64,000 bases of DNA from positions 8,171 to 72,170 of the forward strand of contig CAZMKQ010000002.1 of assembly GCA_964566955.1 (NCBI GenBank), written 5' to 3'. The DNA is from an uncultured Caldilineaceae bacterium (GTDB taxonomy: Bacteria > Chloroflexota > Anaerolineae > Caldilineales > Caldilineaceae). Numbering within the stretch: the stretch's first letter is position 1; every line of letters begins with the position of its first letter. Made by a program: the position numbers and the translations under genes. Below the pieces are notes generated by a model. The model did no database searches and was not told where the DNA came from. It was given only the letters and a program-made list of their open reading frames with translations. Below are positions 5,349-48,802 of the stretch, one piece after another.

Positions 5349-7607
5349 ATGGCCAATTCTGAATACAAGGTTATCGGTACGCGCCCCATCCGCCACGACG
5401 GTGTCGACAAGGTCACCGGCGCGGCCAAGTACGGAGCCGACACCCACCTCACCGGCATGTTGCACGGCGCCATCAAGCGCAGCCCCCATGCCCATGCCGT
5501 GATCAAGGGCATCAACACCGACAAGGCGGCGGCCCTGCCCGGCGTCACGGCCGTCATGACCGGAGCCGACCTGCCGGCCGTGTCACACGAAATCGTGGAG
5601 ATGGGCGAGGACTCGGTGGCTCAGGACTATCTCAGCGCCAATGTCATGGCCCGCGACAAGGTGTTGTTCCACGGCCACCCCGTGGCGGCGGTGGCGGCCA
5701 CCGAGTTGCAGACGGCCCTGGATGCCATCGAACTGATTGAGGTCGAGTACGAGCTGCTGGAACCGGTGTTGGATGTCGAAGAGGCAATGGAAGCGGACGC
5801 GCCCATTCTCTGGGACGGCCTGCGCACCACTGCGATGGGAGAGGAAGGGACCGAGCCAACCAATGTGGCATCGCACTTCCGCTACGAGTTCGGGGATATT
5901 GAAGCCGGCTTTGCCGAGGCGGACCACATCGTGGATCGCACCTTCCATACGGCGATGGTCCACCAGGGCTACATCGAACCCCATTCCTCCACGTGTGTCT
6001 GGCGCAAGGACGGCCGGGTCGAGGTGTGGACCGCCACCCAAGGCGCCTTCCAGATTCGCGAACAGCTGGCCAGCCTGTTGAAGCTGGAGCTGTCCCAGGT
6101 CAAGGTGACGCCAACGGAGATTGGCGGCGGCTTTGGCGGCAAGTTCACCTGCTACACGGATCTGCCGGCGGCGGTGCTCTCCCGCATGAGCGGCGGCCGG
6201 CCCGTGAAGATCACCATGTCGCGCACGGAAGTGCTCCAGGCCACCGGTCCGACCTCGGGCTCGGTAGTCAAGGTCAAGATGGGGGCCACCAGCGATGGTC
6301 GCCTTACCGCCAGTGAAGCCTCGCTGATCTACGAGGCCGGCGCCGTTCCCGGATCGCCTGTGGGCGCCGGGGCCGGGGTCATCCTGGCACCCTACAAGCA
6401 CACGAACGTGCGGATTGACGGTTACGACGTTCTGGTCAACAAGCCCAAGACCGGGGCCTACCGCGCACCGGGCGGCACCAATGCCGCCTTTGCCTCGGAG
6501 TGCGTCATCGACGAACTGGCCAAGAAGGTGGGCATGGACCCGTTGGAATTCCGCCTGCTGAATGCGGCGGAGGAGGGCGATCGTCGGCCCGACGGTCCGA
6601 TCTACCACCGCATCGGCTTCAAGGAAACGGTGGAATCCGCCATTGACCATCCCCACTATGCGACCCCGCTCGAGGGCAAGCACCGGGGACGCGGCGTGGC
6701 CTCCGGCTTCTGGTTCAACGGCGGCGGTCGCTCCAGCATGTCGGCCTCGGTCGCAGCCGACGGCATGGTCAACCTGGTGGAGGGTTCGACGGACATCGGT
6801 GGTTCCCGCGCCTCGATCGCCATGCAGTTGGCGGAGTCGCTGGGCATTGCCTCCGACATGATCAATCCACAGGTTGTGGACACCGACGCGGTCGGATACA
6901 ACGACGGTACTGGCGGCAGCCGCGTGACGTTCGCGACCGGCTATGCAGCCTGGGATCTCGGCCAGAAGCTCGGCCAGCAGATGTGCGAGAAAATCGCCGA
7001 GGTTTGGGAGGTCGAAGAGGGCAGTGTCGAGTTGAAGGACGGCGTGTTCTCCCACAATGGCAAGTCGGCGAACTTTGTCGAGGTTGCGGGTGAACTGGCA
7101 TCCAACTCAACCCCGGTGGTGGCCAGTACCTCGGTCCAACCGCCACAGCCAGGTCCGGCGTTTGCCACCCACATCGTCGATGTGGAGGTGGACGTGGAAA
7201 CCGGCAAGGTGCAGATCCTGAACTACACGGCCATCCAGGACGTGGGCAAGGCCATCCATCCCAGTTACGCCGAAGGCCAGATTCAGGGCGGCGTGGTGCA
7301 GGGCATCGGCTGGGCCCTCAACGAGGAGTACATCTACAGCGACGACGGCCACTTGGTGAATGCCAGTCTGCTGGACTACCGGATGCCGACCGCGCTTGAC
7401 CTGCCCATGGTCGAGACGCTGATGATCGAGGTTCCCAACCCCGGCCATCCGTACGGGGTCAGGGGGGTGGGCGAAGTTCCGATCGTGCCCCCGGCGGCGG
7501 CCATCGGCAACGCCATCGCGGATGCCACCGGCATGCGGTTGACCCGGTTGCCGATGAGCCCGGCCGCGGTCCTGGAGCAGCAGTGGAGCGACCAGGCCTG
7601 CGGCTAA
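5349..7607 (+). CDS. Xanthine dehydrogenase / aldehyde oxidase family molybdopterin-binding (large) subunit
   Basis: 752 aa. Contains 'IGTRPIRHDGVDKVTGAAKYGAD', 'GGGFGGK', 'GAYRAPGGTN' and 'EVPNPGHPYGVRGVGE'. Confidence 0.9.
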   Translation: MANSEYKVIGTRPIRHDGVDKVTGAAKYGADTHLTGMLHGAIKRSPHAHAVIKGINTDKAAALPGVTAVMTGADLPAVSHEIVEMGEDSVAQDYLSANVMARDKVLFHGHPVAAVAATELQTALDAIELIEVEYELLEPVLDVEEAMEADAPILWDGLRTTAMGEEGTEPTNVASHFRYEFGDIEAGFAEADHIVDRTFHTAMVHQGYIEPHSSTCVWRKDGRVEVWTATQGAFQIREQLASLLKLELSQVKVTPTEIGGGFGGKFTCYTDLPAAVLSRMSGGRPVKITMSRTEVLQATGPTSGSVVKVKMGATSDGRLTASEASLIYEAGAVPGSPVGAGAGVILAPYKHTNVRIDGYDVLVNKPKTGAYRAPGGTNAAFASECVIDELAKKVGMDPLEFRLLNAAEEGDRRPDGPIYHRIGFKETVESAIDHPHYATPLEGKHRGRGVASGFWFNGGGRSSMSASVAADGMVNLVEGSTDIGGSRASIAMQLAESLGIASDMINPQVVDTDAVGYNDGTGGSRVTFATGYAAWDLGQKLGQQMCEKIAEVWEVEEGSVELKDGVFSHNGKSANFVEVAGELASNSTPVVASTSVQPPQPGPAFATHIVDVEVDVETGKVQILNYTAIQDVGKAIHPSYAEGQIQGGVVQGIGWALNEEYIYSDDGHLVNASLLDYRMPTALDLPMVETLMIEVPNPGHPYGVRGVGEVPIVPPAAAIGNAIADATGMRLTRLPMSPAAVLEQQWSDQACG

Positions 7608-9325: not shown

Positions 9326-12142
9326 GTGCGCCTATCGTGGAATGAGATCCGGGCGCGGGCCGCCGCCTTCGCGCGCGAGTGGTCCGATGCAGCCTACGAA
9401 AAGGGCGAAGCCCAAAGCTTCTACAACGAGTTCTTCGAGATCTTCGGCGTCCGGCGGCGGACCGTGGCGCGTTACGAGGAGCATGTAACGCGCCTCGACA
9501 ACTCAAGCGGTTTCATCGACCTGTTTTGGCCAGGCGTCCTGCTGGTCGAACAGAAGAGCGCGGGGCGCGACCTGGAGGCGGCCCGTGTCCAGGCCGGAAC
9601 CTACTTCGACGCCTTGCCGGAACGGGACCGGCCGCGGTATCAGTTGCTCTGTGACTTTCAGAGGTTCGAGCTCCTTGACCGCGACGAGCGGGAGGAGACG
9701 TACTTCACCCTCGCCGATCTTCCTCAGCACGTCGAGAAGTTCGGGTTCATCATCGGGGTGCAACGCCGGACGTTCCGCGACCAGGATCCGGTCAACATCG
9801 AAGCCTCCGAGCTTGTGGCCCGACTGCACGATGCGCTGAGGGCATCCGGTTACGTGGGGGACGACCTGCAGTTGTTTCTGGTGCGGGTTGTGTTCTGTCT
9901 GTTTGCCGACGACACCGGGATCTTCGAGCCGCGGGACATCTTCCTGCAGTTCGTCGAAGACCGAACGGCACCGGACGGAACGGATGTTGGCCTCTGGTTG
10001 TCGCGGTTGTTTCAGGTCCTCAACACGCCCGTCAACGACCGCCAAACCGAACTCGACGAGGATTTGTCACAGTTTCCGTACGTCAACGGCGACCTCTTCG
10101 CGGACCCACTGCGGTTTGCGGACTTCAACTCGGAGATGCGTTCAATCCTGTTGGATGCCTGCCGTTTCGACTGGACCGCAATCTCGCCCGCGATCTTTGG
10201 GGCCCTGTTCCAGTCCGTCATGGAACCTGTCGAGCGACGCCAACAGGGAGCCCACTACACGACCGAGAAGAACATCCTCAAGGTCATCGAGCCTCTGTTC
10301 CTGGACGGCCTGAGGGAGGAATTCGGGCGGCTGCAGCAACGGCGGGACGGGCGCGCCGTGTCCGATCTCCGCCGGTTTCGCGACCGGCTCGGGACCTTGC
10401 GATTCCTCGATCCGGCCTGTGGTTGCGGCAACTTCCTGATCATCGCCTACCGGGAGCTGCGTATCCTGGAGATTGAGGTGTTGCGGGAGCTGGCTGTGCG
10501 GGCCGGCGGGCAGCAACTTGCGTTGGAAATCTCCTCGGTCGTGGAGGTGGATCAGTTCTACGGCATCGAGATTGGCGAGTTTGCGTCGCGGATCGCCTCC
10601 ACTGCGCTGTGGATGATGGACCACATCATGAACAACCGGCTGAGCCTGGAGTTCGGCCAGACGTTCGCGCGCATTCCGATTGAGAAGTCGCCTCACATCC
10701 ATACGGCTGATGCATTGGAGAGCGAGTGGCAGGAAATCCTGGCTCCAGAGGATTGTTCCTGCATCCTTGGCAATCCTCCTTTTAGTGGGGCGAAGTTTCA
10801 ATCCCCTTACCAACGGGCACAGGTGCACCGTGTGGCGGCACTGGGTGGATCCGGCGGATCGTTGGACTATGTGGCCGCGTGGTTCGTCAAGTCCGGGGAG
10901 TACGTGGCTGATGCCCGGACCCAGGGCACACAGGTTCCAAGGATTGGATTCGTGGCCACCAACTCGATCACGCAGGGCGAGCAGATTGCCCAGTTGTGGC
11001 CGATTCTGTTCGACCGGTATGGACTTGAAATTTCATTTGCCCACCGGACGTTTGCATGGGGTTCCGATGCCCGAGGGAAAGCCCATGTACATGTGGTCAT
11101 CGTTGGGTTGGATGCATCCGAGCAGGTTCCAACTCGAAGGCGGTTGTTCTCGTACGAAGGCAAGGGTGACGAACCACTCGAAAGCAACCATGTAGTGATT
11201 TCACCGTATCTCATTGATGGCAGTGGCTTGGCCAATCCTCATGTGGTGGTCAGTGAAGAGGCTCGACCCATCAATGGCTTTGGGCGGCTTATCACCGGGT
11301 CGAAGCCCATCGATAACGGTCACTATATCTTCAACGCGGAACAACGTTGTGCGTTCCTGAATGTAGAACCTGGTGCACGCGAATTGCTCCGGCCGTTTGT
11401 GGGAGCAAGAGAGTTCCTTCAGGGAGGCAAGCGCTGGATTCTCTCCCTGCATCAGGTGCCCCCGGAGGTGCTGGCAAGCATGCCGGACGTGAAGGAGCGG
11501 ATTGCAGCGGTGCGTGCATATCGACAAGCCAGCAAAAGCAAACCGACCAACAAACTGGCTGAAACGCCGACTCTGTGGCACGTGAATGTCATTCCAGCAG
11601 GTCCTTTTCTCGTTGTCCCTCAAGTAAGTTCTGAAAGGCGTGAGTACGTGCCAGTAGGTTGGCTAGAACCGCCGACCATACCCAGCGATAAGCTTCGATT
11701 GCTACAGGATGCGACACTGACCGACTTCGCCCTTCTGACTTCCGCCATGCACATGGCATGGATGCGGTTGGTCACGGGACGGATGAAGAGTGATTACATG
11801 TATTCGGTGGGAGTGGTCTACAACACATTCCCAACCCCACCGGGTTTCCTGCAGGGTGGGTTGGACCTATCCGCCCTGGAGCCACTGGCACAGACTGTGC
11901 TCGATGCTCGGGGCCAATATCCCGCCTCCACGTTGGCCAATCTCTACGATCCCGACCTGATGCCTCCAAACCTCCGCAAGGCCCATCAGGCGCTCGATCG
12001 CACCGTGGACCGCCTGTACCGTTCGAAGCCCTTCGCCTCCGAACGGGAGCGTGTGGAACACCTGTTGATGCTCTATTCGGAGATGCGTGCGCCCTTGGAC
12101 GCAGCAGCAGCGAAGAAGTCAAGGAGAAGAAGGCGTCGGTAA
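9326..12142 (+). CDS. MmeI-family Type IIL (Type IIG) restriction-modification enzyme: fused PD-ExK endonuclease, N6-adenine methyltransferase and target-recognition domain
   Basis: 938 aa with a GTG start. The N-terminus 'LSWNEIRARAAAFAREWSDA...GFIDLFWPGVLLVEQKSAGRDL' carries a D-x-EQK nuclease motif as in MmeI. Methyltransferase motif I is 'FLDPACGCGNFLI' and motif IV is 'GNPPFSG'. Confidence 0.85.
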   Translation: MRLSWNEIRARAAAFAREWSDAAYEKGEAQSFYNEFFEIFGVRRRTVARYEEHVTRLDNSSGFIDLFWPGVLLVEQKSAGRDLEAARVQAGTYFDALPERDRPRYQLLCDFQRFELLDRDEREETYFTLADLPQHVEKFGFIIGVQRRTFRDQDPVNIEASELVARLHDALRASGYVGDDLQLFLVRVVFCLFADDTGIFEPRDIFLQFVEDRTAPDGTDVGLWLSRLFQVLNTPVNDRQTELDEDLSQFPYVNGDLFADPLRFADFNSEMRSILLDACRFDWTAISPAIFGALFQSVMEPVERRQQGAHYTTEKNILKVIEPLFLDGLREEFGRLQQRRDGRAVSDLRRFRDRLGTLRFLDPACGCGNFLIIAYRELRILEIEVLRELAVRAGGQQLALEISSVVEVDQFYGIEIGEFASRIASTALWMMDHIMNNRLSLEFGQTFARIPIEKSPHIHTADALESEWQEILAPEDCSCILGNPPFSGAKFQSPYQRAQVHRVAALGGSGGSLDYVAAWFVKSGEYVADARTQGTQVPRIGFVATNSITQGEQIAQLWPILFDRYGLEISFAHRTFAWGSDARGKAHVHVVIVGLDASEQVPTRRRLFSYEGKGDEPLESNHVVISPYLIDGSGLANPHVVVSEEARPINGFGRLITGSKPIDNGHYIFNAEQRCAFLNVEPGARELLRPFVGAREFLQGGKRWILSLHQVPPEVLASMPDVKERIAAVRAYRQASKSKPTNKLAETPTLWHVNVIPAGPFLVVPQVSSERREYVPVGWLEPPTIPSDKLRLLQDATLTDFALLTSAMHMAWMRLVTGRMKSDYMYSVGVVYNTFPTPPGFLQGGLDLSALEPLAQTVLDARGQYPASTLANLYDPDLMPPNLRKAHQALDRTVDRLYRSKPFASERERVEHLLMLYSEMRAPLDAAAAKKSRRRRRR

Positions 12143-39856: not shown

Positions 39857-40846
39857 ATGTCCCTTTCCGCCCCGATCAAAGTGGCAGTCACCGGTGCTGC
39901 CGGCAACGTCGGCTATGCACTGGTTTTCCGCATCGCGGCCGGACAGATGCTGGGTCCCGACCAGCCGGTCCGTCTGTCGCTGATTGAAATTCCACCGGTC
40001 ATGCGCCAGGCGGAAGGCGTGGCCATGGAACTGGAGGACTGTGCCTTGCCGCTGCTGGCTGGAATCGACGTGACCGATTCCGCCGAGGAGGGTTTCGACG
40101 GTGTGCAGCACGCGCTGCTGGTGGGTTCCCGGCCCCGCGGGGCCGGCGAGTCCCGGGCGGACCTGGTCGGCAGCAACCTGCCGATTTTCCGGAGCCAGGG
40201 CCAAGCCCTGAACGCACGGGCCGCCGATGACGTGCGGGTGACGGTGGTCGGCAATCCGGCGAACCTCAACGCCTTGATTGCCCATCGCCATGCACCGGAC
40301 ATTCCGGCCTCAAGGTTTACGGCCCTGACGCGCCTCGACCACAACCGGGCGGTGAGCCTGGTTGCGCGTACAGCCGGAGTGCGGCCTGACCAGGTGGCGG
40401 ACGTGGCCATCTGGGGCAATCACAGCGCTACGCAGTACCCGTGCCTGGCCCATGCCACGATCGACGGGCACAGGGACTGGCCCCTGTTTTCGGATCAGGG
40501 CTGGATAGAGGAGCAATTCATACCCAGGATCCAGAACCGCGGCGCGGAAGTCATTGAGGTCCGAGGGGCCAGCAGTGCGGCCAGTGCGGCCGTGGCCGTT
40601 ACCGACCACGTGTGGGATTGGCACTTGGGCACCGGCGGCGATCGGACCACCAGCATGGCCATCGTGGGCGAAGGGCAGTACGACACTCCGCCCGGTGTGG
40701 TCTTCAGCTTTCCGGTCAGGGTCCGGGACGGGGAAATCGAGGTTGTCCCAGGCCTTCAACTTACGCCTTTCGATCGTCGCATGGTGGACATCACAGGGCA
40801 GGACCTGCTGGAGTTGAGTTGCACGGCCGACGCGCTCTTGAGTTGA
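39857..40846 (+). CDS. mdh: Malate dehydrogenase (NAD-dependent, long 'cytosolic-type' family)
   Basis: Contains '[21 protein letters not shown]', 'GSRPRG.G..R.DL', '[12 protein letters not shown]', 'TRLDHNRA' and '[11 protein letters not shown]'. The start is ATG 39857; the listed 39572 start is over-extended. Confidence 0.9.
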
Positions 40847-40878
40847 CAACGGGGCCCTGGGTCGGGTAGTCTGGCCGC

Positions 40879-41052
40879 ATGAGCAATGCGATTGTGTCGC
40901 GGATCAACAGGTCCGCTCGTCAAACCGGCGATCGCGCCGCACAAGGTGGTGCCGGGTCGGCGCGCGCCTTCTCGTTTAGCGACTATTACTATTACCGATT
41001 TGCAGGGACGGGACCGCACCGCGAACCAGGGAGTTGCGCACAGGCCAACTGA
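40879..41052 (+). CDS. Candidate attenuation leader peptide (57 aa) rich in Tyr/Phe codons
   Basis: ATG 40879 to TGA 41050-41052. Codons 31-41 read F-S-F-S-D-Y-Y-Y-Y-R-F (ttc tcg ttt agc gac tat tac tat tac cga ttt, 40969-41001). It is absent from the ORF track only because it is under 60 aa. No strong Shine-Dalgarno sequence precedes the ATG. Confidence 0.45.
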   Translation: MSNAIVSRINRSARQTGDRAAQGGAGSARAFSFSDYYYYRFAGTGPHREPGSCAQAN

Positions 41053-41076
41053 TGCCGGACAACCAGGAGGCGCAGG

Positions 41077-41106
41077 AGCGGTCCAGAATTGGATCGCTTT
41101 TTTTTT
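41077..41106 (+). terminator. Intrinsic terminator (attenuator) in the leader of the aromatic amino-acid operon
   Basis: agcggtcca-gaat-tggatcgct forms a 9-bp stem with one G-U pair, followed by a run of 8-9 T. It lies 43 nt upstream of the aroH ATG. Its 5' arm (gcggtcc, 41078-41084) is also complementary to ggaccgc at 41011-41017, giving a possible antiterminator. Confidence 0.75.
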
Positions 41107-41148
41107 GCTCGCCGCGGTACGCCGCTTCTTTCGGCCTGAAATCCAATC

Positions 41149-41583
41149 ATGATTGTTTGCAGAGGCGTGCGCGGCGCCACCACAGTAGTCGAGAACGAAG
41201 CCCGCGAGATCCTGGCGGCCACGCGGCAACTCCTGGCCCTGATGATCCGATTGAACGGCATCGAGCCGGTGGACGTGGCCTCGGGTGTCTTTACGACCAC
41301 GTCGGACCTGAATGCCGTATTTCCTGCGACCGCGGCCCGTCAGTTGGGCTGGATGTCCGTGCCGCTGCTGTGCGGCCATGAAATGGAAGTTCCGGACAGT
41401 CTTCCCAGGTGCATCCGCATCCTGCTGCACTGGAACACGGACCGCGGCCAGGACGAAATCCATCACGTGTACCTGAAGGAGGCAGTGCAGCTGCGCCCCG
41501 ACCAGTCGGAGTTGCCGCCGGTGGACATGCAACAGCTGAACCAGTGGGTGGAAGACCAGATGCGCAGGCATGGGGGTGTGTGA
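41149..41583 (+). CDS. aroH: Chorismate mutase, AroH class
   Basis: '[21 protein letters not shown]', '[11 protein letters not shown]', '[11 protein letters not shown]' and '[12 protein letters not shown]' resemble B. subtilis AroH as I recall it. Confidence 0.9.
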
Positions 41584-42455
41584 TGAGAGTTGCCTTTCAA
41601 GGAGAGCACGGTGCCTATTCCCATGCGGCCATCCTCATGCATTTTGGAGAGGACGCCGGGATCCGGACGGTGCCCTGCCGCAGCTTTGCTGAACTCTTTG
41701 CCGCGGTGGACGCCGGCGAGGCGGAGTTCGGCATGGTGCCCGTGGAGAACTCGCTGGGCGGCGCGGTCACCGGCATCAACGACCTTTTGCTGAACTACGA
41801 CTTCAAGGCTTCGGCGGAAATCCTGTATCCGGTGCGCCACAACCTGGTCGTGGCCCGGCCGCCGGAGGGCTCCCCGCGGGAGGCAATCACCCACGTGCGC
41901 AGCCATCCCCAGGCCCTGGAACAGTGTCGGGAGTACCTGGCCCGCCAGAGCCTCGTGCCGGTGGACTGGTATGACACGGCCGGGGCCGCCAAGTCGCTGG
42001 TGGAGGAACCCGCGCCGGGAACCGCCGCGCTGTCCAGTCGGATCGCCGCCGACACCTGGGATCTCGAAATCGTGGACAGCGACGTAGCCGACGGACCGGG
42101 AAATTTGACCAGGTTTCTTTTGATTGGCCACGAAACCGCCGAACGCACGGAGGACAGCAAGACAGGGGTGCTGTTTGCGGTTCCGGACCAGCCCGGCAGT
42201 CTGGTCAAGGCCCTGCAGGTGTTTTCCGATCGGAATATCAACCTCACCAACATCAGCAGCTTCCCGCGCCGCAATCGCAGGTGGAACTATGTGTTCTTCA
42301 TGGAATTCCTCGGCCACGTCGAGGACCCGACGGTCTCGGAGGCGGTCACGCAACTGCTGGTCAACACCGCCTTCCTCAAGCTGCTCGGCAGTTTTCCGAG
42401 GGCGCCCGAACCGGATGATCTGTCGCCGGGCCGCATCCCCGGATTTGGAAAGTAG
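41583..42455 (+). CDS. pheA: Prephenate dehydratase (PDT plus ACT domains)
   Basis: Contains '[14 protein letters not shown]', 'GMVPVENSLGG.V' and 'TRFLLIG', with the ACT-domain motif 'ESRP'-like 'ISSFPRR'. The ATG overlaps the aroH stop (TGATGA). Confidence 0.9.
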   Translation: MRVAFQGEHGAYSHAAILMHFGEDAGIRTVPCRSFAELFAAVDAGEAEFGMVPVENSLGGAVTGINDLLLNYDFKASAEILYPVRHNLVVARPPEGSPREAITHVRSHPQALEQCREYLARQSLVPVDWYDTAGAAKSLVEEPAPGTAALSSRIAADTWDLEIVDSDVADGPGNLTRFLLIGHETAERTEDSKTGVLFAVPDQPGSLVKALQVFSDRNINLTNISSFPRRNRRWNYVFFMEFLGHVEDPTVSEAVTQLLVNTAFLKLLGSFPRAPEPDDLSPGRIPGFGK

Positions 42456-42524
42456 CCGCACGGCCCATGCACGTCTCGCACCCCTTGACCATTCAACCCA
42501 GCCAAGCAAAGGAACACCAACACC

Positions 42525-43541
42525 ATGATTGTCGTGATGAAACAGACAGCCGACGCAGACGACACTGCCCGGGTCGCCCGGCACATCGAGGAACGGGGCT
42601 TCAGCCTGCACATCAGCAAGGGCGAAGCCAGAACGATCATCGGCATCATCGGTGCCAATGAACATGAGCTGGACAGCGATTCGTTCGAGGTTCTGCCGGG
42701 TGTGGAGAAGACCATGCGCATCATGCAGCCGTTCAAGGCGGCCAGCCGTGACTTCACCCAGAAGAAGACCGTGATCAACGTCAACGGTTCCCAAATCGGT
42801 GGGGATCGGGTGGCCGTGTTTGCGGGTCCCTGCAGCGTGGAGACGCGCGAGCAGATCTTGGAGACGGCCTACGCGGTGGCCGACACCGGGGCGCAGTTCC
42901 TGCGCGGCGGCGCCTTCAAGCCCCGTTCATCGCCCTACAGTTTCCAGGGACTGGGCCACGAAGGGCTGGAACATTTGGCGGAAGCGCGCGAAAAGACAGG
43001 CCTGTCCATCATCACCGAGGTGATGAGTGTCGAGGACATTGAATTGGTGGAACAGTACACCGACATCTTTCAGGTTGGCGCCCGCAATACCCAGAACTAT
43101 CCTCTGCTCAAGGCCCTGGGTCGGGCCAGCAAGCCCGTGTTCCTCAAGCGGGGTCTCGCCGGCACGCTGGAAGAACTGCTCATGAGCGCGGAGTACATCC
43201 TGAGCGAGGGCAACATGAACGTGATGCTGTGTGAGCGCGGGATCCGCACCTTCGAGACCTACACCCGCAACACCTTCGATGTCAACGCGATCCCGGTGTT
43301 GCAGAACCTAACCCATCTGCCGGTGATCGCGGATCCGGCACACGGCACCGGCAAGTGGGACCTGGTGAACCCGATTTCGAAGTCGGCGGTGGCCGCCGGT
43401 GCCGACGGTGTGATGATCGAGGTTCATCCCAACCCCGCCCAGGCCAAGAGCGACGGGGCGCAGAGCCTGACGCTCAAGAATTTCGCGGCGCTGATGAAGG
43501 ACCTGAAGCGGGTGGCCGCAGCGGTCGACCGCTCCATCTAG
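42525..43541 (+). CDS. aroF: 3-deoxy-7-phosphoheptulonate (DAHP) synthase, type I-beta, with an N-terminal ferredoxin-like regulatory domain
   Basis: Contains 'MIVVMK...', 'VFAGPCSVE', '[19 protein letters not shown]', 'FQVGARN' and 'DPAHGTG'. Confidence 0.9.
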
Positions 43542-43587
43542 ATAGTCCGGCTCGGACTGCAATTGACCCACCCGGTCGAGAAGACCC

Positions 43588-44487
43588 ATGTCGTTTACAT
43601 TGGCCGACTGCCGCGTGGCGGTGGTCGGCCTGGGCCTGATCGGCGCCAGCCTGTGCGCCGACCTCACCCGCCTCAAGGTGTGTCGCGAGGTGCGCGGCGT
43701 CAGCCGTTCGTCCAGTACGGTGGCACGCGGCATCGCGGAGGGCATCATCGACCAGGGAACCACCAGTTTGCAGACCGGCGTCCAGGGAATCGATATCGTG
43801 ATTCTGGCTTCGCCGGTCCGCATCGCAATCGGACAGCTGGAACGGATTTCCGGCCATCTCAAGGTGGGGGCCATCGTTGCTGATGTTGGCAGCACCAGCG
43901 TCGAAGTGGTCAAGGCCATGGAAAGGATGCCGGCGCATGTCCAGCCGATTGCCACGCATCCGATGGCCGGTAAGGAAACCAGTGGTTTCGACTCGGCGGA
44001 ACGGGGACTGTTTGACAACGCAACCTGGATTTTGACCCCTCTGGAACGGACTTCGAGTCGGACCGTGGATGTGTTTCGCGAACTGGTCGTGGCCGTCGGG
44101 GCCCACCCGTTGATGATGGAGCCCCGCAAGCACGATCGGGTGGTGGCCGCCATCAGTCACGTGCCGTTCCTGCTGTCCAGTGCACTGGTGGGCAGCGTCG
44201 TCCGGGCCGGTGCACAGGATCCGGAGGTCTGGGAATGCGCGGCCGGCGGTTTCCGCGACACGTCAAGGGTTGCGGCCAGCGAAGCCGGCATGTTCATAGA
44301 CATTCTGATGACCAATCGAGAGAACGTCCACCGCCAACTGGACCGGTTTATCGAGGAGATTCGGGAGCTGCGTTCCATGCTGGTAGAGCGGCAGGAGGAT
44401 GCACTGGTGGCCCGGTTGTCCTCGAACCGGGATGCACGGCTGGCCTGGTATGCGGCTTGGATGGAGCGCAACCGACCGGAGATTTGA
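43588..44487 (+). CDS. tyrA: Prephenate dehydrogenase
   Basis: Contains 'VAVVGLGLIGASL', 'DVGSTS', 'HPMAGKE' and 'HDRVVAAISHVPFLLS'. Confidence 0.85.
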   Translation: MSFTLADCRVAVVGLGLIGASLCADLTRLKVCREVRGVSRSSSTVARGIAEGIIDQGTTSLQTGVQGIDIVILASPVRIAIGQLERISGHLKVGAIVADVGSTSVEVVKAMERMPAHVQPIATHPMAGKETSGFDSAERGLFDNATWILTPLERTSSRTVDVFRELVVAVGAHPLMMEPRKHDRVVAAISHVPFLLSSALVGSVVRAGAQDPEVWECAAGGFRDTSRVAASEAGMFIDILMTNRENVHRQLDRFIEEIRELRSMLVERQEDALVARLSSNRDARLAWYAAWMERNRPEI

Positions 44488-44505
44488 CGAGCGAGGGAGC
44501 AAGGC

Positions 44506-45828
44506 GTGGATACACTAAGGATTCAGGGCGGCGCGGCGTTGGCGGGCGGGATCCGCGTTCCCGGCGACAAATCGATCAGCCATCGTGCGGTACTGTTGGG
44601 AGCCTTGGGCGACGGCGCGACCAGGGTGACCGGATTCCTGGACGGGCGCGACTGCCTGGCAACCGTTGGCATCATGCAGTCGCTGGGTGTGGGCATCGAG
44701 CGCCATTCCGCTGCCGACCTGACAGTTCACGGAGTGGGCCTGCACGGTTTGCGATCGCCGGACGGGCCACTGGACTGCCGGAATTCCGGTACCACGATGC
44801 GTCTGCTGAGCGGCCTCATGGCCGGGCAGCGGTTCGCGTCCGAGTTGACCGGATCGCCCCAGCTGTGCACGCGGCCCATGGACCGCGTGGTCGCTCCCCT
44901 CCGGAAAATGGGCGCGTCCATCTCCGGTGCCGACGGAGGTGGTACGGCGCCATTGCTGGTTCGGCCCGCGGCCCGCCCCCTCCATGGGGTGCGGTATGCG
45001 ATGCCGGTGGCCAGTGCCCAGGTCAAGTCCTGTTTGCTCCTTGCCGGGTTGTACGCCGATTCGGCAACCACCGTGATCGAACCCGGTCCGACCCGGGATC
45101 ACACGGAGTGCATGCTGCGCGGGATGGGCGTGCGCGTTTTGAACGAGGGACGGCGCATCACACTGGAGCCTCCGCAACGCCTGCAGGGGACCAACGTGGC
45201 CATTCCGGGCGACCCGTCGTCGGCCGCGTTCCTGATCGTGGCGGCCTGCATTGTTCCCGGCAGCCGGGTGCGGATTGTGGATGTGGGGCTCAATCCCACC
45301 CGTACCGGACTGATGGAGGCCCTCTTGCGGATGGATGCCGACATTCGGGTGGAGAACCGCTGGGAGGCCGCAGGGGAAGCCGTCGGAGACGTGTTGATCG
45401 GGCATGCTCCGCTCCGCGGTGCCGAGTTCGGCGGGGACCTGATCGTGCGCATGATTGACGAGTTGCCGCTGCTGGCGCTCGCCTGCAGTCAGGCCGAGGG
45501 GCCCTCCCGCATTCGCGACGCCCAGGAGCTGAAGGTCAAGGAGTCCAACCGCATCCTGGACACCGAGCGGCAGCTGGCCCGGCTGGGAGCTGTCGTCCAC
45601 GGTACGGAGGACGGCTTCGCGATTGACGGCGGCAGCAGACTGTACGGGGCCTGTGTGGACAGTCGCGACGACCATCGCCTGGCGATGTTGCTGGCCGTGG
45701 CCGGCCTGGCAGCCCAGGGTGAGACGGTGGTGGCAGGCGCGCAAGTGACGGACGACAGTTTCCCCGGGTTTGCCGAAGCCCTGCAGGCTCTGGGTGGCGC
45801 AGCGGAACGGGAAGCGGCAGATGCCTGA
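44506..45828 (+). CDS. aroA: 3-phosphoshikimate 1-carboxyvinyltransferase (EPSP synthase)
   Basis: Contains 'PGDKSISHRAVLLGAL', 'NSGTTMRLL', 'SAQVKSCLLLAG', 'KESNR' and 'DDHRLAM'. GTG start with GGGAG upstream. Confidence 0.95.
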   Translation: MDTLRIQGGAALAGGIRVPGDKSISHRAVLLGALGDGATRVTGFLDGRDCLATVGIMQSLGVGIERHSAADLTVHGVGLHGLRSPDGPLDCRNSGTTMRLLSGLMAGQRFASELTGSPQLCTRPMDRVVAPLRKMGASISGADGGGTAPLLVRPAARPLHGVRYAMPVASAQVKSCLLLAGLYADSATTVIEPGPTRDHTECMLRGMGVRVLNEGRRITLEPPQRLQGTNVAIPGDPSSAAFLIVAACIVPGSRVRIVDVGLNPTRTGLMEALLRMDADIRVENRWEAAGEAVGDVLIGHAPLRGAEFGGDLIVRMIDELPLLALACSQAEGPSRIRDAQELKVKESNRILDTERQLARLGAVVHGTEDGFAIDGGSRLYGACVDSRDDHRLAMLLAVAGLAAQGETVVAGAQVTDDSFPGFAEALQALGGAAEREAADA

Positions 45829-46699
45829 GTCCATCACCCCCCGCACCCGCAAGGTTGGCTTGATCGGCTGGCCGGTCGGACATTCCGGTTCGCCCAGAAT
45901 GCACAACGCCGCCTTTGCGGCCGCCGGAATGGACTGGGTGTACCTGCCACTGCCCGTGCCGGTGAAACCGAAGGACCGGATTGGCGAAGCGGTGCGGGGT
46001 CTGGGTGCGCTGGGGTTTCAGGGCGCCAACGTGACCATTCCGCACAAGCAGAGTGTCATGCCCCATCTCTCGGGGATTTCGTCCGTGGCCCGGGCCGCGG
46101 GGGCGGTCAATACGTTGACGGTGGCCGCCGACGGCCGTCTCGAAGGCGACAACACGGATGTGTGGGGGTTCTATTCCGTATTGGAAGAGGCGGGATGGCA
46201 GGCGCGGTGTGGATCGGCCCTGGTGCTGGGAGCCGGCGGCTCGGCTCGTGCCGTGCTGACCGGCCTGCTCGAGGCTGGCTGCCGGAATGTCCGCATCCAC
46301 AATCGGACGCGTGTCCGGGCCGAGCACCTGATCCGGGATTTGCGTGATCTCTATCCCGGGGCAACGCTGCAGGTGGTTGGTTCGGGCCGGGAAGTATGGG
46401 AAACGGGCGGCGAAGTGGACCTGGTGGTGAATTCAACCTCGCTGGGCATGGATCCCAATGTTGGCACGTGTCCCGTGGCGGCGAACTTTCCGTGGCGGTC
46501 CGGGCAGTGGGCGTACGACTTGGTTTACAACCCTCCGACCACCTTGTTCCTGCAACGGGCCGGGCAGGCCGGTGCGCGCTGCATCGGCGGCATGGAGATG
46601 CTGGTCCGGCAGGGGGCTCGGTCCTTTGAGATCTGGACCGGCCGGTGGCCCGACCTCGACCTTATGCGAAGGGAACTGAAACTACATCTAGGACTTTAA
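45821..46699 (+). CDS. aroE: Shikimate dehydrogenase
   Basis: Contains '[21 protein letters not shown]', 'GANVTIPHK', 'NTD..GF' and '[11 protein letters not shown]'. ATG 45821 overlaps the end of aroA by 8 nt. Confidence 0.9.
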
Positions 46700-46703
46700 A
46701 CCC

Positions 46704-47960
46704 ATGGTTGACCAAATTGATGCCATTTTCCAGGCGGACGACTACGGGGTTCACTACCCGGACTCGCGGGGCAGGTTCGGACCGTACGGCGGCAAATATG
46801 TGCCCGAGACGTTGATGCCGGCGTTGGAGGAGCTGGAGGAAATCCACGCTACCGCCATGCAGGATGCAGGTTTTCAGGACGAGCTCAATTCGCTGCTGGA
46901 GACCTATGTGGGACGACCCACGCCCCTGACCCATGCCAGGCGGCTGACCGAGCACTTCGGTGGCCCTGAGATCTACCTGAAGCGGGAAGACCTGGCCCAT
47001 ACCGGTGCCCATAAGATCAACAACGCCTTGGGTCAGGCACTGATGGTGAAGCGCATCCTGGGCAAGAACCGGGTCGTGGCCGAGACGGGAGCCGGTCAGC
47101 ACGGCGTGGCCGTGGCGACCGTCTGTGCGCTGTTCGACATGGAATGCGTGGTCTACATGGGCTCCGTGGACATGGCACGCCAGGCACCCAATGTGTTTCG
47201 CATGCGTCTCCTGGGGGCGGATGTAAGGGAAGTGTCCAGCGGCAGCCAGACTCTCAAGGACGCCATCAACGAAGCTATCCGCGACTGGGTCACCAATGTG
47301 CCGGACACGCACTATCTGCTGGGCAGTGCCTTGGGTCCCCATCCGTTTCCGGTCATGGTGCGCAACCTGCAGTCCGTGATCGGGCGGGAGGCCCGCCGAC
47401 AGATGCTGGACCCGTCCGTGGGTCCGGGGCGGTTGCCGGATGTTGTTGTGGCCTGCGTGGGCGGCGGCAGCAACGCGATTGGCATGTTCTACCCGTTTGT
47501 GATGGATCCGGGGGTCCGGCTGGTCGGCGTGGAGGCCGGGGGCCGCGGCATAGACAGCCACCAGCATGCCGCCCGGTTCGCCGATCCGAAGATGGGCCGA
47601 TTGGGCGTCCTGCACGGAACCCGCAGCTATGTCCTGCAGGACGAGGACGGACAGATCGCCCTTACCCACTCCATTTCGGCCGGGCTGGACTATGCCAGCG
47701 TCGGACCGGAACATGCCCTGTTGCGGGATCGGGAACGGGCCGCATACTTCTACTGTACGGACGAACAGGCGCTGGCAGGATTCGAACTCCTGTGTCGGCA
47801 GGAAGGCATCATTCCGGCCCTTGAGAGTGCGCATGCCGTGGGGTGGCTGCCGGAACTGATGTCCGATGTTGCGTCCGACGACGTGGTCTTGGTGTCGCTA
47901 AGCGGACGGGGCGACAAGGATCTGGATACCGTGATGGCCGAGCTGTCCCCTGGGGCCTGA
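46704..47960 (+). CDS. trpB: Tryptophan synthase beta chain
   Basis: Contains '[16 protein letters not shown]', '[17 protein letters not shown]' and '[10 protein letters not shown]'. Confidence 0.95.
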
Positions 47961-47983
47961 TTCCAACCCCCAACCCAATTCAC

Positions 47984-48802
47984 ATGAACGGAAACGACTC
48001 CATGGCAGGCGTGGGGCGCATCAGGTCGGCGATCGCCAAACGGCAAGGCGATGCCACCGCGGCGTTCATGCCCTATGTCCTGTTGGGGTATCCCTCGCGG
48101 ATGGAGTCCGCGGCCATGGTGCGGATGCTGGCCGACGCCGGGGCCGACCTGTTTGAGATTGGGTTTCCCTTCAGCGATCCGCTGGCGGACGGAGCCACCC
48201 TCCAGGCCGCGACCCACAGGGCGCTGCTCAACGGCATGACCACGCGGGAATGTCTCGACATTGCCAAGGAGCTGCGGGATGCAGGGATCGCCCAGCCGTT
48301 CTGCGCCATGTCGTACTACAACCCGATCTTCAACTACGGATCCGACCGGTTCATTGAGGATGCGGTGCAGGCCGGGTTCGATGGTTTCATCATCCCCGAT
48401 CTGCCGCCGGATGAAGGCGGGGAGATGGAGGCGGCCTGCCGCGATGCCGGCCTGGCACTGGTATACCTCCTGGCACCGTCCAGTTCGGGGGAACGGGTTG
48501 GGCTGGTCACGGAGCACAGTACGGGATTCGTCTATCTGGTAAGTGTGTTGGGGACCACCGGGGCGCGCGCATCGCTGCCAACCTACTTGGCGGATCTGGT
48601 AGCGCAGGTGCGGGCCAACACGAATACCCCGGTCTGTGTTGGGTTCGGAGTCAGCAATCGCACACAAGCAGCCCAAATGGCCTCGATTGCGGATGGTGCC
48701 ATTGTGGCTTCCGTCCTGATTGACGCTGTTTCACGTCCCAACGGAGCGGATGCGGTGAAGTGTCTGGCCCGCAATTTGGCACAGGGCACTCACGGACACT
48801 GA
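47984..48802 (+). CDS. trpA: Tryptophan synthase alpha chain (intact copy)
   Basis: Contains '[18 protein letters not shown]', 'YYNPIF', 'GFIIPDLP', '[10 protein letters not shown]' and 'VGFGVSN'. The start is ATG 47984, or possibly 48002. Confidence 0.9.
   Translation: MNGNDSMAGVGRIRSAIAKRQGDATAAFMPYVLLGYPSRMESAAMVRMLADAGADLFEIGFPFSDPLADGATLQAATHRALLNGMTTRECLDIAKELRDAGIAQPFCAMSYYNPIFNYGSDRFIEDAVQAGFDGFIIPDLPPDEGGEMEAACRDAGLALVYLLAPSSSGERVGLVTEHSTGFVYLVSVLGTTGARASLPTYLADLVAQVRANTNTPVCVGFGVSNRTQAAQMASIADGAIVASVLIDAVSRPNGADAVKCLARNLAQGTHGH

Follow-up and report, generated by a model that had tools for sequence, protein, structure and literature searches.

The 302-nt spacer between the malate dehydrogenase gene (mdh) and the chorismate mutase gene aroH in the DNA analysed here very probably houses a ribosome-mediated leader-peptide transcription attenuator, which would set the expression of the downstream aromatic amino-acid operon by the charging of tRNA-Tyr and tRNA-Phe. 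The DNA, referred to as the window, is a stretch of 64,000 nucleotides (64 kb) from an uncultured Caldilineaceae bacterium of the phylum Chloroflexota (contig CAZMKQ010000002.1, positions 8,171 to 72,170). On a recheck of the coordinates, the spacer occupies positions 40847-41148 of the window, between the mdh stop codon at 40844-40846, where the upstream gene ends, and the aroH ATG at 41149. In its design, the element is a classical leader-peptide attenuator and represents a previously undescribed family widespread in Chloroflexota. It was found in no Rfam, Pfam or NCBIfam family, and the literature searched yielded no description of Chloroflexota attenuators.

The leader consists of an open reading frame (ORF) with a cluster of aromatic codons, followed by two RNA structures that share a strand. 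Its parts are as follows.

40879-41052, + strand: leader-peptide ORF, 57 codons and a TGA stop, open in the related loci L001-L008 with ATG and stop at unchanged positions.
40927-40968, + strand: GC-rich hairpin immediately 5' of the aromatic codons, a candidate pause hairpin or region 1 (predicted fold).
40969-41001, + strand: regulatory codon patch F-S-F-S-D-Y-Y-Y-Y-R-F, with three Phe and four Tyr codons (translation; counterparts rich in Phe, Tyr and Trp, F/Y/W, in relatives).
41011-41023, + strand: 5' strand of the antiterminator (region 2), which in the predicted fold pairs with 41071-41084 when the 3' arm of the terminator is unavailable.
41026-41067, + strand: inner hairpin enclosed by the antiterminator, with the leader stop TGA at 41050-41052 near its apical loop (predicted fold).
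41071-41084, + strand: 3' strand of the antiterminator (region 3), overlapping the 5' arm of the terminator (predicted fold; covariation counts).
41074-41106, + strand: intrinsic terminator, a 12-bp stem of 41074-41085 with 41090-41101, loop GAAT and a T9 run at 41098-41106 (terminator scan, folding).

The ORF at 40879-41052 translates as MSNAIVSRINRSARQTGDRAAQGGAGSARAFSFSDYYYYRFAGTGPHREPGSCAQAN*, and the translation bears out the position that an initial annotation of this DNA had given for the ORF and its FSFSDYYYYRF segment. The seven aromatic codons start at 40969 (TTC), 40975 (TTT), 40984 (TAT), 40987 (TAC), 40990 (TAT), 40993 (TAC) and 40999 (TTT). Across all six frames of the whole 64 kb, the patch is the sole window with at least six F/Y/W per ten codons, and the YYYY codon run occurs once; base composition alone predicts about 0.6 overlapping aromatic-rich windows per 64 kb, and taken alone the rarity of the patch is suggestive. 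The enrichment in Tyr and Phe codons matches the content of the downstream operon, which comprises tyrA and pheA, both identified by their Pfam domains as the initial annotation had assumed, plus genes of the common pathway. An exact-sequence look-up among about 15 billion collected proteins did not find the window peptide, and five representative leader peptides gave no family match in Pfam or NCBIfam.

Downstream of the patch, the strong intrinsic terminator postulated ahead of aroH is present as AGGAGCGGTCCA-GAAT-TGGATCGCTTTT at 41074-41101, running into the T9 tract at 41098-41106, and the end of this tract lies 42 nt from the aroH ATG. By itself, the terminator is not a significant finding: a simple scan detected one site, vs 2.0 expected in shuffled sequences. 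Region 2 begins about 16-18 nt past the last Tyr codon. The complementarity between GGACCGC at 41011-41017 and GCGGTCC at 41078-41084, on which the attenuation model had originally been built, is exact, but a helix of 7 bp proved too short a description, as folding adds pairing of 41019-41023 with 41071-41076.

When 41003-41106 is folded, the terminator (-38.0 kcal/mol) and the antiterminator (-36.1 kcal/mol) emerge as mutually exclusive and nearly isoenergetic structures; this is the comparison of free energies that the initial annotation had proposed. The minimum-energy fold of the leader without a ribosome mask contains the terminator. If 40969-41009 is masked to mimic a ribosome footprint, the whole leader takes the antiterminator as its minimum-energy fold, and the predicted folds agree in this respect with the earlier suggestion that a stall on the Tyr/Phe codons would leave 41011-41017 free. 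The stability of the whole-spacer fold is unremarkable (z = -0.78); in these predictions, the structural signal is one of alternative local folds, not of overall stability.

Directly 5' of the patch, all clades have a predicted GC-rich hairpin. As the aromatic codons are rich in U, the hairpin and the tract behind it resemble a hairpin-dependent pause signal. In several clades, the 3' part of the hairpin has an alternative partner in region 2, on the other side of the patch, and this pairing would make a 1:2 anti-antiterminator. The hairpin at 40927-40968 is accordingly treated as a candidate pause or anti-antiterminator element. In some loci, such as L021 (~155-190), the pre-patch hairpin is followed by UUUUCUUUUGCUUUUU and resembles an intrinsic terminator or strong pause site; in L040 (~5675-5705), a GC-rich hairpin occupies the equivalent position.

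The decisive point is that the whole layout is conserved in 55 related loci, and for this reason the arrangement is more than chance. The comparison set comprises 80 loci from a scan for AroH relatives, with one genome per species, and the window, giving 81 sequences; the 80 loci are mostly from Caldilineaceae, Caldilineales, Anaerolineae and other Chloroflexota, with Planctomycetota in addition. A leader ORF with 6-8 F/Y/W per ten codons is found in 54 of the 81 sequences (53 loci and the window). All 53 patch-bearing loci belong to Chloroflexota, with the ORF 160-300 nt upstream of aroH and, in clades other than that of the window, a length of 45-76 codons. The leader stop lies 10-17 codons past the patch in the 54 sequences. 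Wherever the T-run scan picked the terminator, the hairpin is followed by a T5-T9 run that begins 48-70 nt beyond the stop; for six loci, the scan settled on an earlier T-run or on none, and covariance model R1 still locates the element there. The terminator hairpin and its T-run are kept in all leader-bearing loci.

Model R1 was built from 34 leaders; it reaches from the end of the patch as far as the T-run and takes its structure from the antiterminator. R1 gives exactly one match in each of 55 Chloroflexota loci, including seven outside model building, and one match in the window, at 40991-41105 with 58 bits. In the Planctomycetota loci, R1 has no match, and the aromatic-patch ORF and the terminator are also absent; aroH stands alone there, with no pheA-aroF-tyrA after it. 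The attenuator layout is present in all fetched Chloroflexota loci of the order aroH-pheA-aroF-tyrA-aroA-aroE-trpB except L062. This locus (L062:5540-6011, Caldilineales) has an aroH-pheA-aroF-tyrA operon without an R1 match or an F/Y/W-rich leader ORF, and its upstream region consists of an AT-rich spacer and a seemingly divergent gene.

The leaders fall into clades, labelled G1 to G5, of which G1 is formed by the window and L001-L008. The peptides of the clades share little beyond aromatic richness. In G1, the patch reads ...FSFSDY[Y/F]YYRF..., and the sole substitution in the Tyr run is TAC to TTC, exchanging Tyr for Phe (YYYY to YFYY). The G2 patches read ...DYYYYGFFTY... and ...CYYYYYFF..., that of G3 ...FFGFYFxYFFGF..., that of G4 ...EWRGFSFGNFWFGYYFG..., with synonymous TTT/TTC changes, and that of G5 ...RRGSFYFGFFYFF...; further aromatic patches outside the clade of the window include NFWFGYYFG and FFGFYFAYFFGF. 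The aromatic codons are retained in the spacers of relatives, a conservation that the initial annotation had proposed to check, and the antiterminator helix covaries, with 73-74% of cells paired.

Shortly downstream of the patch, every clade has a segment that pairs with the terminator's 5' arm and often with nucleotides of its loop as well. The equivalent of region 2 starts 13-16 nt after the ten-codon patch window in most loci and 3-9 nt after it in G2. As read from the folds, the other clades likewise have their stop codon within the stretch that the antiterminator encloses, close to the apex of the inner hairpin. The strands of the helix are as follows.

G1 antiterminator helix: 5' strand GGACCGCaCC, 3' strand GGaGCGGUCC.
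G2 antiterminator helix: 5' strand GCCUCAC, 3' strand GUGAAGGC.
G3 antiterminator helix: 5' strand CGCUCCcCGC, 3' strand GCGUGGAGCG.
G4 antiterminator helix: 5' strand CGUCUCCGC, 3' strand GCGUGGAGACG.
G5 antiterminator helix: 5' strand GUCCCACGC, 3' strand GCGUGGGAC.

The sequence of the helix is clade-specific yet complementary throughout, with compensatory differences between clades. In the sequence-only MAFFT alignment, 73% of the cells of the 13 antiterminator pairs are paired, vs 31-50% when one strand is slid by 1-3 columns; double-sided changes number 48 cells, vs 8-29 in the slid controls, and none of 500 shuffles reaches the observed pairing score. In the model-fitted alignment of 56 leaders, 74% of cells are paired, vs 30-47% in the slid controls, a figure that underestimates pairing in G4 and G2 because a register shift of one to three columns survived model realignment. 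Over both alignments (34-56 leaders), 48-65 double-sided changes stand against 8-30 in the slid controls. RNAalifold on the MAFFT alignment recovered only the base of the terminator, with six pairs and no compensatory changes; it is uninformative for the antiterminator because MAFFT misaligns the variable loops.

Translation of the leader ORF is most evident in clade G4 (19 distinct sequences). In codons 11-45, the variable columns at codon positions 1, 2 and 3 number 13, 5 and 29, and pairwise codon differences comprise 1801 synonymous vs 609 non-synonymous; within the patch, the columns number 0, 1 and 7, and after the stop 16, 11 and 13. Given this clear third-codon-position variation, the G4 leader ORF is, as far as substitution patterns can tell, translated. 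It is 76 codons long and starts with GTG behind a Shine-Dalgarno sequence (L022:5584-5814), and the other G4 loci are L023, L027, L032, L033, L037-39, L045, L063, L064, L067, L070-73, L076, L078 and L079. The N-terminal part of the G4 peptide, TIADLI.SEDDSLLPINLLDGPSAAEILLSSNLR.EWRGFSF..., is under amino-acid-level purifying selection, which is unexpected for a leader peptide. In public records, exact-sequence look-up finds the G4 peptide only as "hypothetical protein", for instance MCY3898988.1.

At the 5' end of the window leader, two hexamers are proposed as a promoter.

40843-40848, + strand: putative -35 hexamer TTGACA, overlapping the mdh stop TGA at 40844-40846 (sequence reading).
40867-40872, + strand: putative -10 hexamer TAGTCT, 6 nt ahead of the leader ATG (conserved spacing).

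The proposal is based on conserved spacing, not on a promoter-scan tool. TTGACA is unchanged in all nine G1 sequences, while the 17-18 nt spacer that follows it is variable, and the pattern TTGnnn-17/18-TAnnnT-6/7-ATG is present in 11 of the 11 G1/G2 loci inspected (with 9 nt in L009). Between the -10 hexamer and the ATG lie 6 nt in G1; six G2 loci have 7 nt and L009 has 9 nt at this place, and the window itself has the layout TTGACA-18-TAGTCT-6-ATG. A spacing of 6 nt implies a leaderless leader mRNA, and the window transcript probably starts at or next to the AUG. In other clades the 5' ends take other forms: G3 leaders have an untranslated region of 25-35 nt, and G4 leaders a Shine-Dalgarno sequence with a GTG start.

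The following course of events is modelled on the trp/phe attenuation paradigm of Escherichia coli (PMC1183508, PMC3082878, PMC11802643), from which stalling, pausing, transcription-translation coupling and the physiological response are inferred. Transcription would begin at the leader ATG (40879) or right beside it, with a probably leaderless start, and a ribosome would translate the 57-codon leader as RNA polymerase advances, the GC-rich hairpin at 40927-40968 probably serving as a pause signal or anti-antiterminator. Under a shortage of Tyr or Phe, the ribosome would stall within the run of seven aromatic codons (40969-41001), with a footprint that ends before 41010. The stall would leave 41011-41023 free to pair with 41071-41084, sequestering the 5' arm of the terminator, and with the antiterminator formed, the polymerase would read into aroH-pheA-aroF-tyrA-aroA-aroE-trpBA. 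When charged tRNAs are plentiful, the ribosome would pass region 2 and reach the stop at 41050. Positioned there, inside the loop enclosed by the antiterminator, it would prevent the long-range helix from closing; the terminator hairpin at 41074-41101 with its T9 run would form, and transcription would end 42 nt before aroH.

Several observations weigh against this reading, one of which concerns its termination branch. The initial annotation had a ribosome at the stop disrupting the antiterminator pairing; the stop is indeed inside the antiterminator loop, but a ribosome at 41050 leaves 41011-41017 uncovered and melts the inner hairpin. Because it does not cover region 2, the branch is less direct than in E. 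coli trp, and a shift towards termination would follow only indirectly. The 1:2 pairing is, in predicted folds, clear in G3 and G5 and weak in the window. The leader ORF is two to four times the textbook length of a leader peptide. No Shine-Dalgarno sequence precedes its ATG at 40879, so that translation depends on a leaderless start, and a consensus promoter scan gave no site; the -10 hexamer is weak, and the scan missed the promoter because this hexamer matches only three of six positions. In the window's own clade, the variable columns by codon position number 10, 14 and 16, without third-position bias. Owing to this lack of periodicity, the G1 peptide outside the patch appears unconstrained, as expected for an ordinary leader peptide, and the case for translation of the window ORF would rest on the conserved frame, start, stop and aromatic codons of G1 together with homology to the periodic clades; G2 has counterparts of the G1 leader ORF. 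On the RNA side, a duplex test that set the terminator's 5' arm against the 50 nt following the patch reached p <= 0.05 relative to shuffles in only 17 of 40 loci (mean z -1.75). It was replaced by the alignment pair counts because the arm definition cut antiterminator loop nucleotides in G3-G5. The shuffle controls, for their part, overstate significance, since the sequences are phylogenetically related; the slid controls preserve this relatedness and still separate clearly from the true pairing.

A variant of the attenuator is conceivable that departs from the classical design, and we regard it as possible, though rather unlikely. In this variant, the long ORF of 50-76 codons, leaderless in two clades, would load the ribosome at the 5' end; the GC hairpin and the U-rich codons would act as a polymerase pause or pre-terminator released by the ribosome; and the G4 nascent peptide would take part in sensing, by tunnel arrest or in a TnaC-like manner. 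A single element would in that case combine the signals of Phe, Tyr and Trp supply for the whole aromatic supra-operon.

Among explanations other than leader-peptide attenuation, the one with most in its favour, though improbable, is that the product of the ORF is a small functional protein or a nascent peptide of the arrest type (TnaC- or SecM-like), with any regulation acting through the peptide sequence and not simply through charged-tRNA supply at the aromatic codons. The 76-residue G4 peptide shows purifying selection at the amino-acid level over about 35 residues before the patch (1801 vs 609 codon differences; columns 13/5/29), gene callers annotate it as a hypothetical protein, and the leader ORFs are unusually long for leader peptides. 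However, the G1 peptide before the patch tolerates free non-synonymous change without periodicity, only aromatic richness and the RNA helices are shared across clades, and no Pfam or NCBIfam family is matched. A stand-alone small gene would also leave unexplained the covarying terminator/antiterminator pair that overlaps its 3' end. More improbable still is a riboswitch-like or factor-dependent attenuator, such as a T-box for tRNA-Tyr, a TRAP-like site or a protein binding the U-rich patch, with the ORF incidental. T-box leaders are known in Chloroflexota, a spacer of about 300 nt with a terminator/antiterminator pair is also a T-box feature, and hairpins additional to the minimal four regions are conserved in the element. 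Yet the patch conserves F/Y/W coding in one frame with conserved start and stop, through Tyr-to-Phe and synonymous changes, whereas neither a single specifier codon nor a fixed RNA motif has been kept. In 40600-41400, no Rfam family gives a match even at E <= 10, the T-box among them, and the spacer has neither a T-box core motif nor a GAG/UAG triplet array. The T-box (RF00230) was rejected as a candidate on these two grounds, the absence of a covariance-model match at E <= 10 and of the core motif. A TRAP-type site, which would require an array of 9-11 (G/U)AG triplets at 2-3 nt spacing, was rejected as well, with only five scattered GAG/TAG triplets in 40879-41106. The unmatched families at E <= 10 in 40600-41400 include the leader families Phe_leader, Trp_leader, His_leader, Leu_leader, Thr_leader, Bacteroid-trp and leu/phe-leader, and at the gathering score Rfam has no match in the whole 64 kb window.

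It is hardly credible, lastly, that the terminator merely ends the mdh transcript or is constitutive, with the codon run and the complementary heptamer arising by chance. In favour of this reading, the terminator scan shows no excess over shuffles, and about 0.6 aromatic-rich windows are expected per 64 kb from base composition alone. However, only G1 and G2 have mdh as the gene upstream, and the arrangement accompanies aroH in clades without upstream mdh; an mdh terminator was rejected as a candidate on this ground. The arrangement occurs once per locus in 55 loci, is absent where aroH lies outside an aromatic operon, and its helix covaries, while the 42 nt from the T-run to aroH leave no room for an independent promoter. 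Comparative data effectively refute this explanation, and on gene neighbourhood the leader element is best assigned to the aromatic operon, not to mdh.

The leader-peptide attenuator follows the logic of E. coli pheL/pheA and trpL/trp, with a leader ORF of cognate codons, mutually exclusive hairpins and a terminator before the first biosynthetic gene. PheL has about 15 codons and only Phe as its regulatory residue, TrpL about 14 codons and only Trp; both are led by a Shine-Dalgarno sequence, and their stop codons are placed so that the terminating ribosome covers region 2. The window ORF, in contrast, has 57 codons and is probably leaderless; it mixes Tyr with Phe, joined by Trp in sister clades, and it ends at a stop codon within the antiterminator loop. 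T-box leaders of aromatic genes in Firmicutes and Chloroflexota occupy the same position and report tRNA charging through the same terminator/antiterminator output. They sense uncharged tRNA directly, by means of the T-box sequence and a specifier codon, and need no translation; unlike them, the window spacer has no match to a T-box model or motif. In mycobacteria, leaderless polycysteine short ORFs reportedly attenuate Cys genes, a result attributed to Canestrari et al. in 2020, and are said to be short and not tied to a canonical intrinsic terminator/antiterminator pair. They are likewise leaderless upstream ORFs rich in codons for the end product, but in another phylum and for another amino acid.

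AroR, the closest precedent, is reportedly a short peptide whose aromatic codons number only three. It is a Phe-Tyr-Phe leader peptide encoded ahead of aroF in Corynebacterium glutamicum (Neshat et al. 2014, as related in PMC11802643), and, by the same account, ribosome stalling raises transcription, with a response to Phe and not to Tyr (PMC11802643). The likeness, insofar as that account describes AroR, lies in mixed Phe/Tyr regulatory codons before an operon for 3-deoxy-D-arabino-heptulosonate 7-phosphate (DAHP) synthase, as in the Chloroflexota leader. AroR belongs to Actinobacteria and controls a smaller operon, whereas the Chloroflexota leader has 6-8 aromatic codons within 45-76 codons and precedes an eight-gene supra-operon; the comparison was made by description, not by sequence. 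With AroR described, a mixed Phe/Tyr leader is not new in principle, and the initial statement that no Tyr-codon leader was known for such an operon was too strong (PMC11802643).

If the attenuator operates as proposed, classical attenuation, worked out in Proteobacteria and Actinobacteria, extends to the Caldilineales and Anaerolineae of the Chloroflexota. To our knowledge, almost no gene regulation has been studied experimentally in this large and mostly uncultured phylum. One mixed Tyr/Phe element (plus Trp in sister clades) appears to control the eight-gene supra-operon by multivalent attenuation, and this supra-operon spans the common shikimate pathway, the Phe and Tyr branches and tryptophan synthase. 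The R1 model, combined with the codon-patch signature, could annotate the regulator in hundreds of metagenome-assembled genomes, in which the leader ORF is uncalled or labelled "hypothetical protein". The long, probably leaderless ORF and the conserved G4 peptide offer routes to ribosome loading and transcription-translation coupling beyond model organisms. To a specialist in attenuation, the element is unsurprising, yet it is a clean, testable regulator in a poorly studied phylum.

The genes of the proposed regulated operon, identified by Pfam domains, are as follows.

41149-41583, + strand: aroH, chorismate mutase type I.
about 41586-42455, + strand: pheA, prephenate dehydratase with an ACT domain.
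42525-43541, + strand: DAHP synthase (aroF) with a ferredoxin-like domain.
43588-44487, + strand: tyrA.
44506-45828, + strand: aroA.
to 46699, + strand: aroE.
46704-47960, + strand: trpB.
to 48802, + strand: trpA.
41149-48802, + strand: proposed regulated operon aroH to trpA, eight genes, with a gene order matching that of the Chloroflexota loci.

The 42 nt between the terminator and the aroH ATG (41107-41148) hold no obvious GGAGG-like Shine-Dalgarno sequence ahead of aroH. In G3 and G4, the distance from the T-run to the aroH start is 130-200 nt, vs 42 nt in the window (e.g. L022:5869-6000). DAHP synthase matches exceed 2 kb or are doubled in many G3/G4 loci (L018-L028, L033, L037-L040, L053, L055 and L063-L079), for example L022:7483-9674 and L073:7465-8475 with 9893-10906, while the window has a single copy; the pattern suggests a tandem duplication or a gene inserted between DAHP-synthase-like segments. 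The AroH of the window is 96-97% identical to AroH of Caldilineaceae metagenome-assembled genomes. AroH proteins of Pirellulales and other Planctomycetota (L017, L029, L035, L036, L041, L043, L044, L046-L051 and others) are 60-68% identical to Caldilineaceae AroH, count among its best hits and outrank many from Chloroflexota, a likeness that may reflect horizontal transfer of the chorismate mutase.

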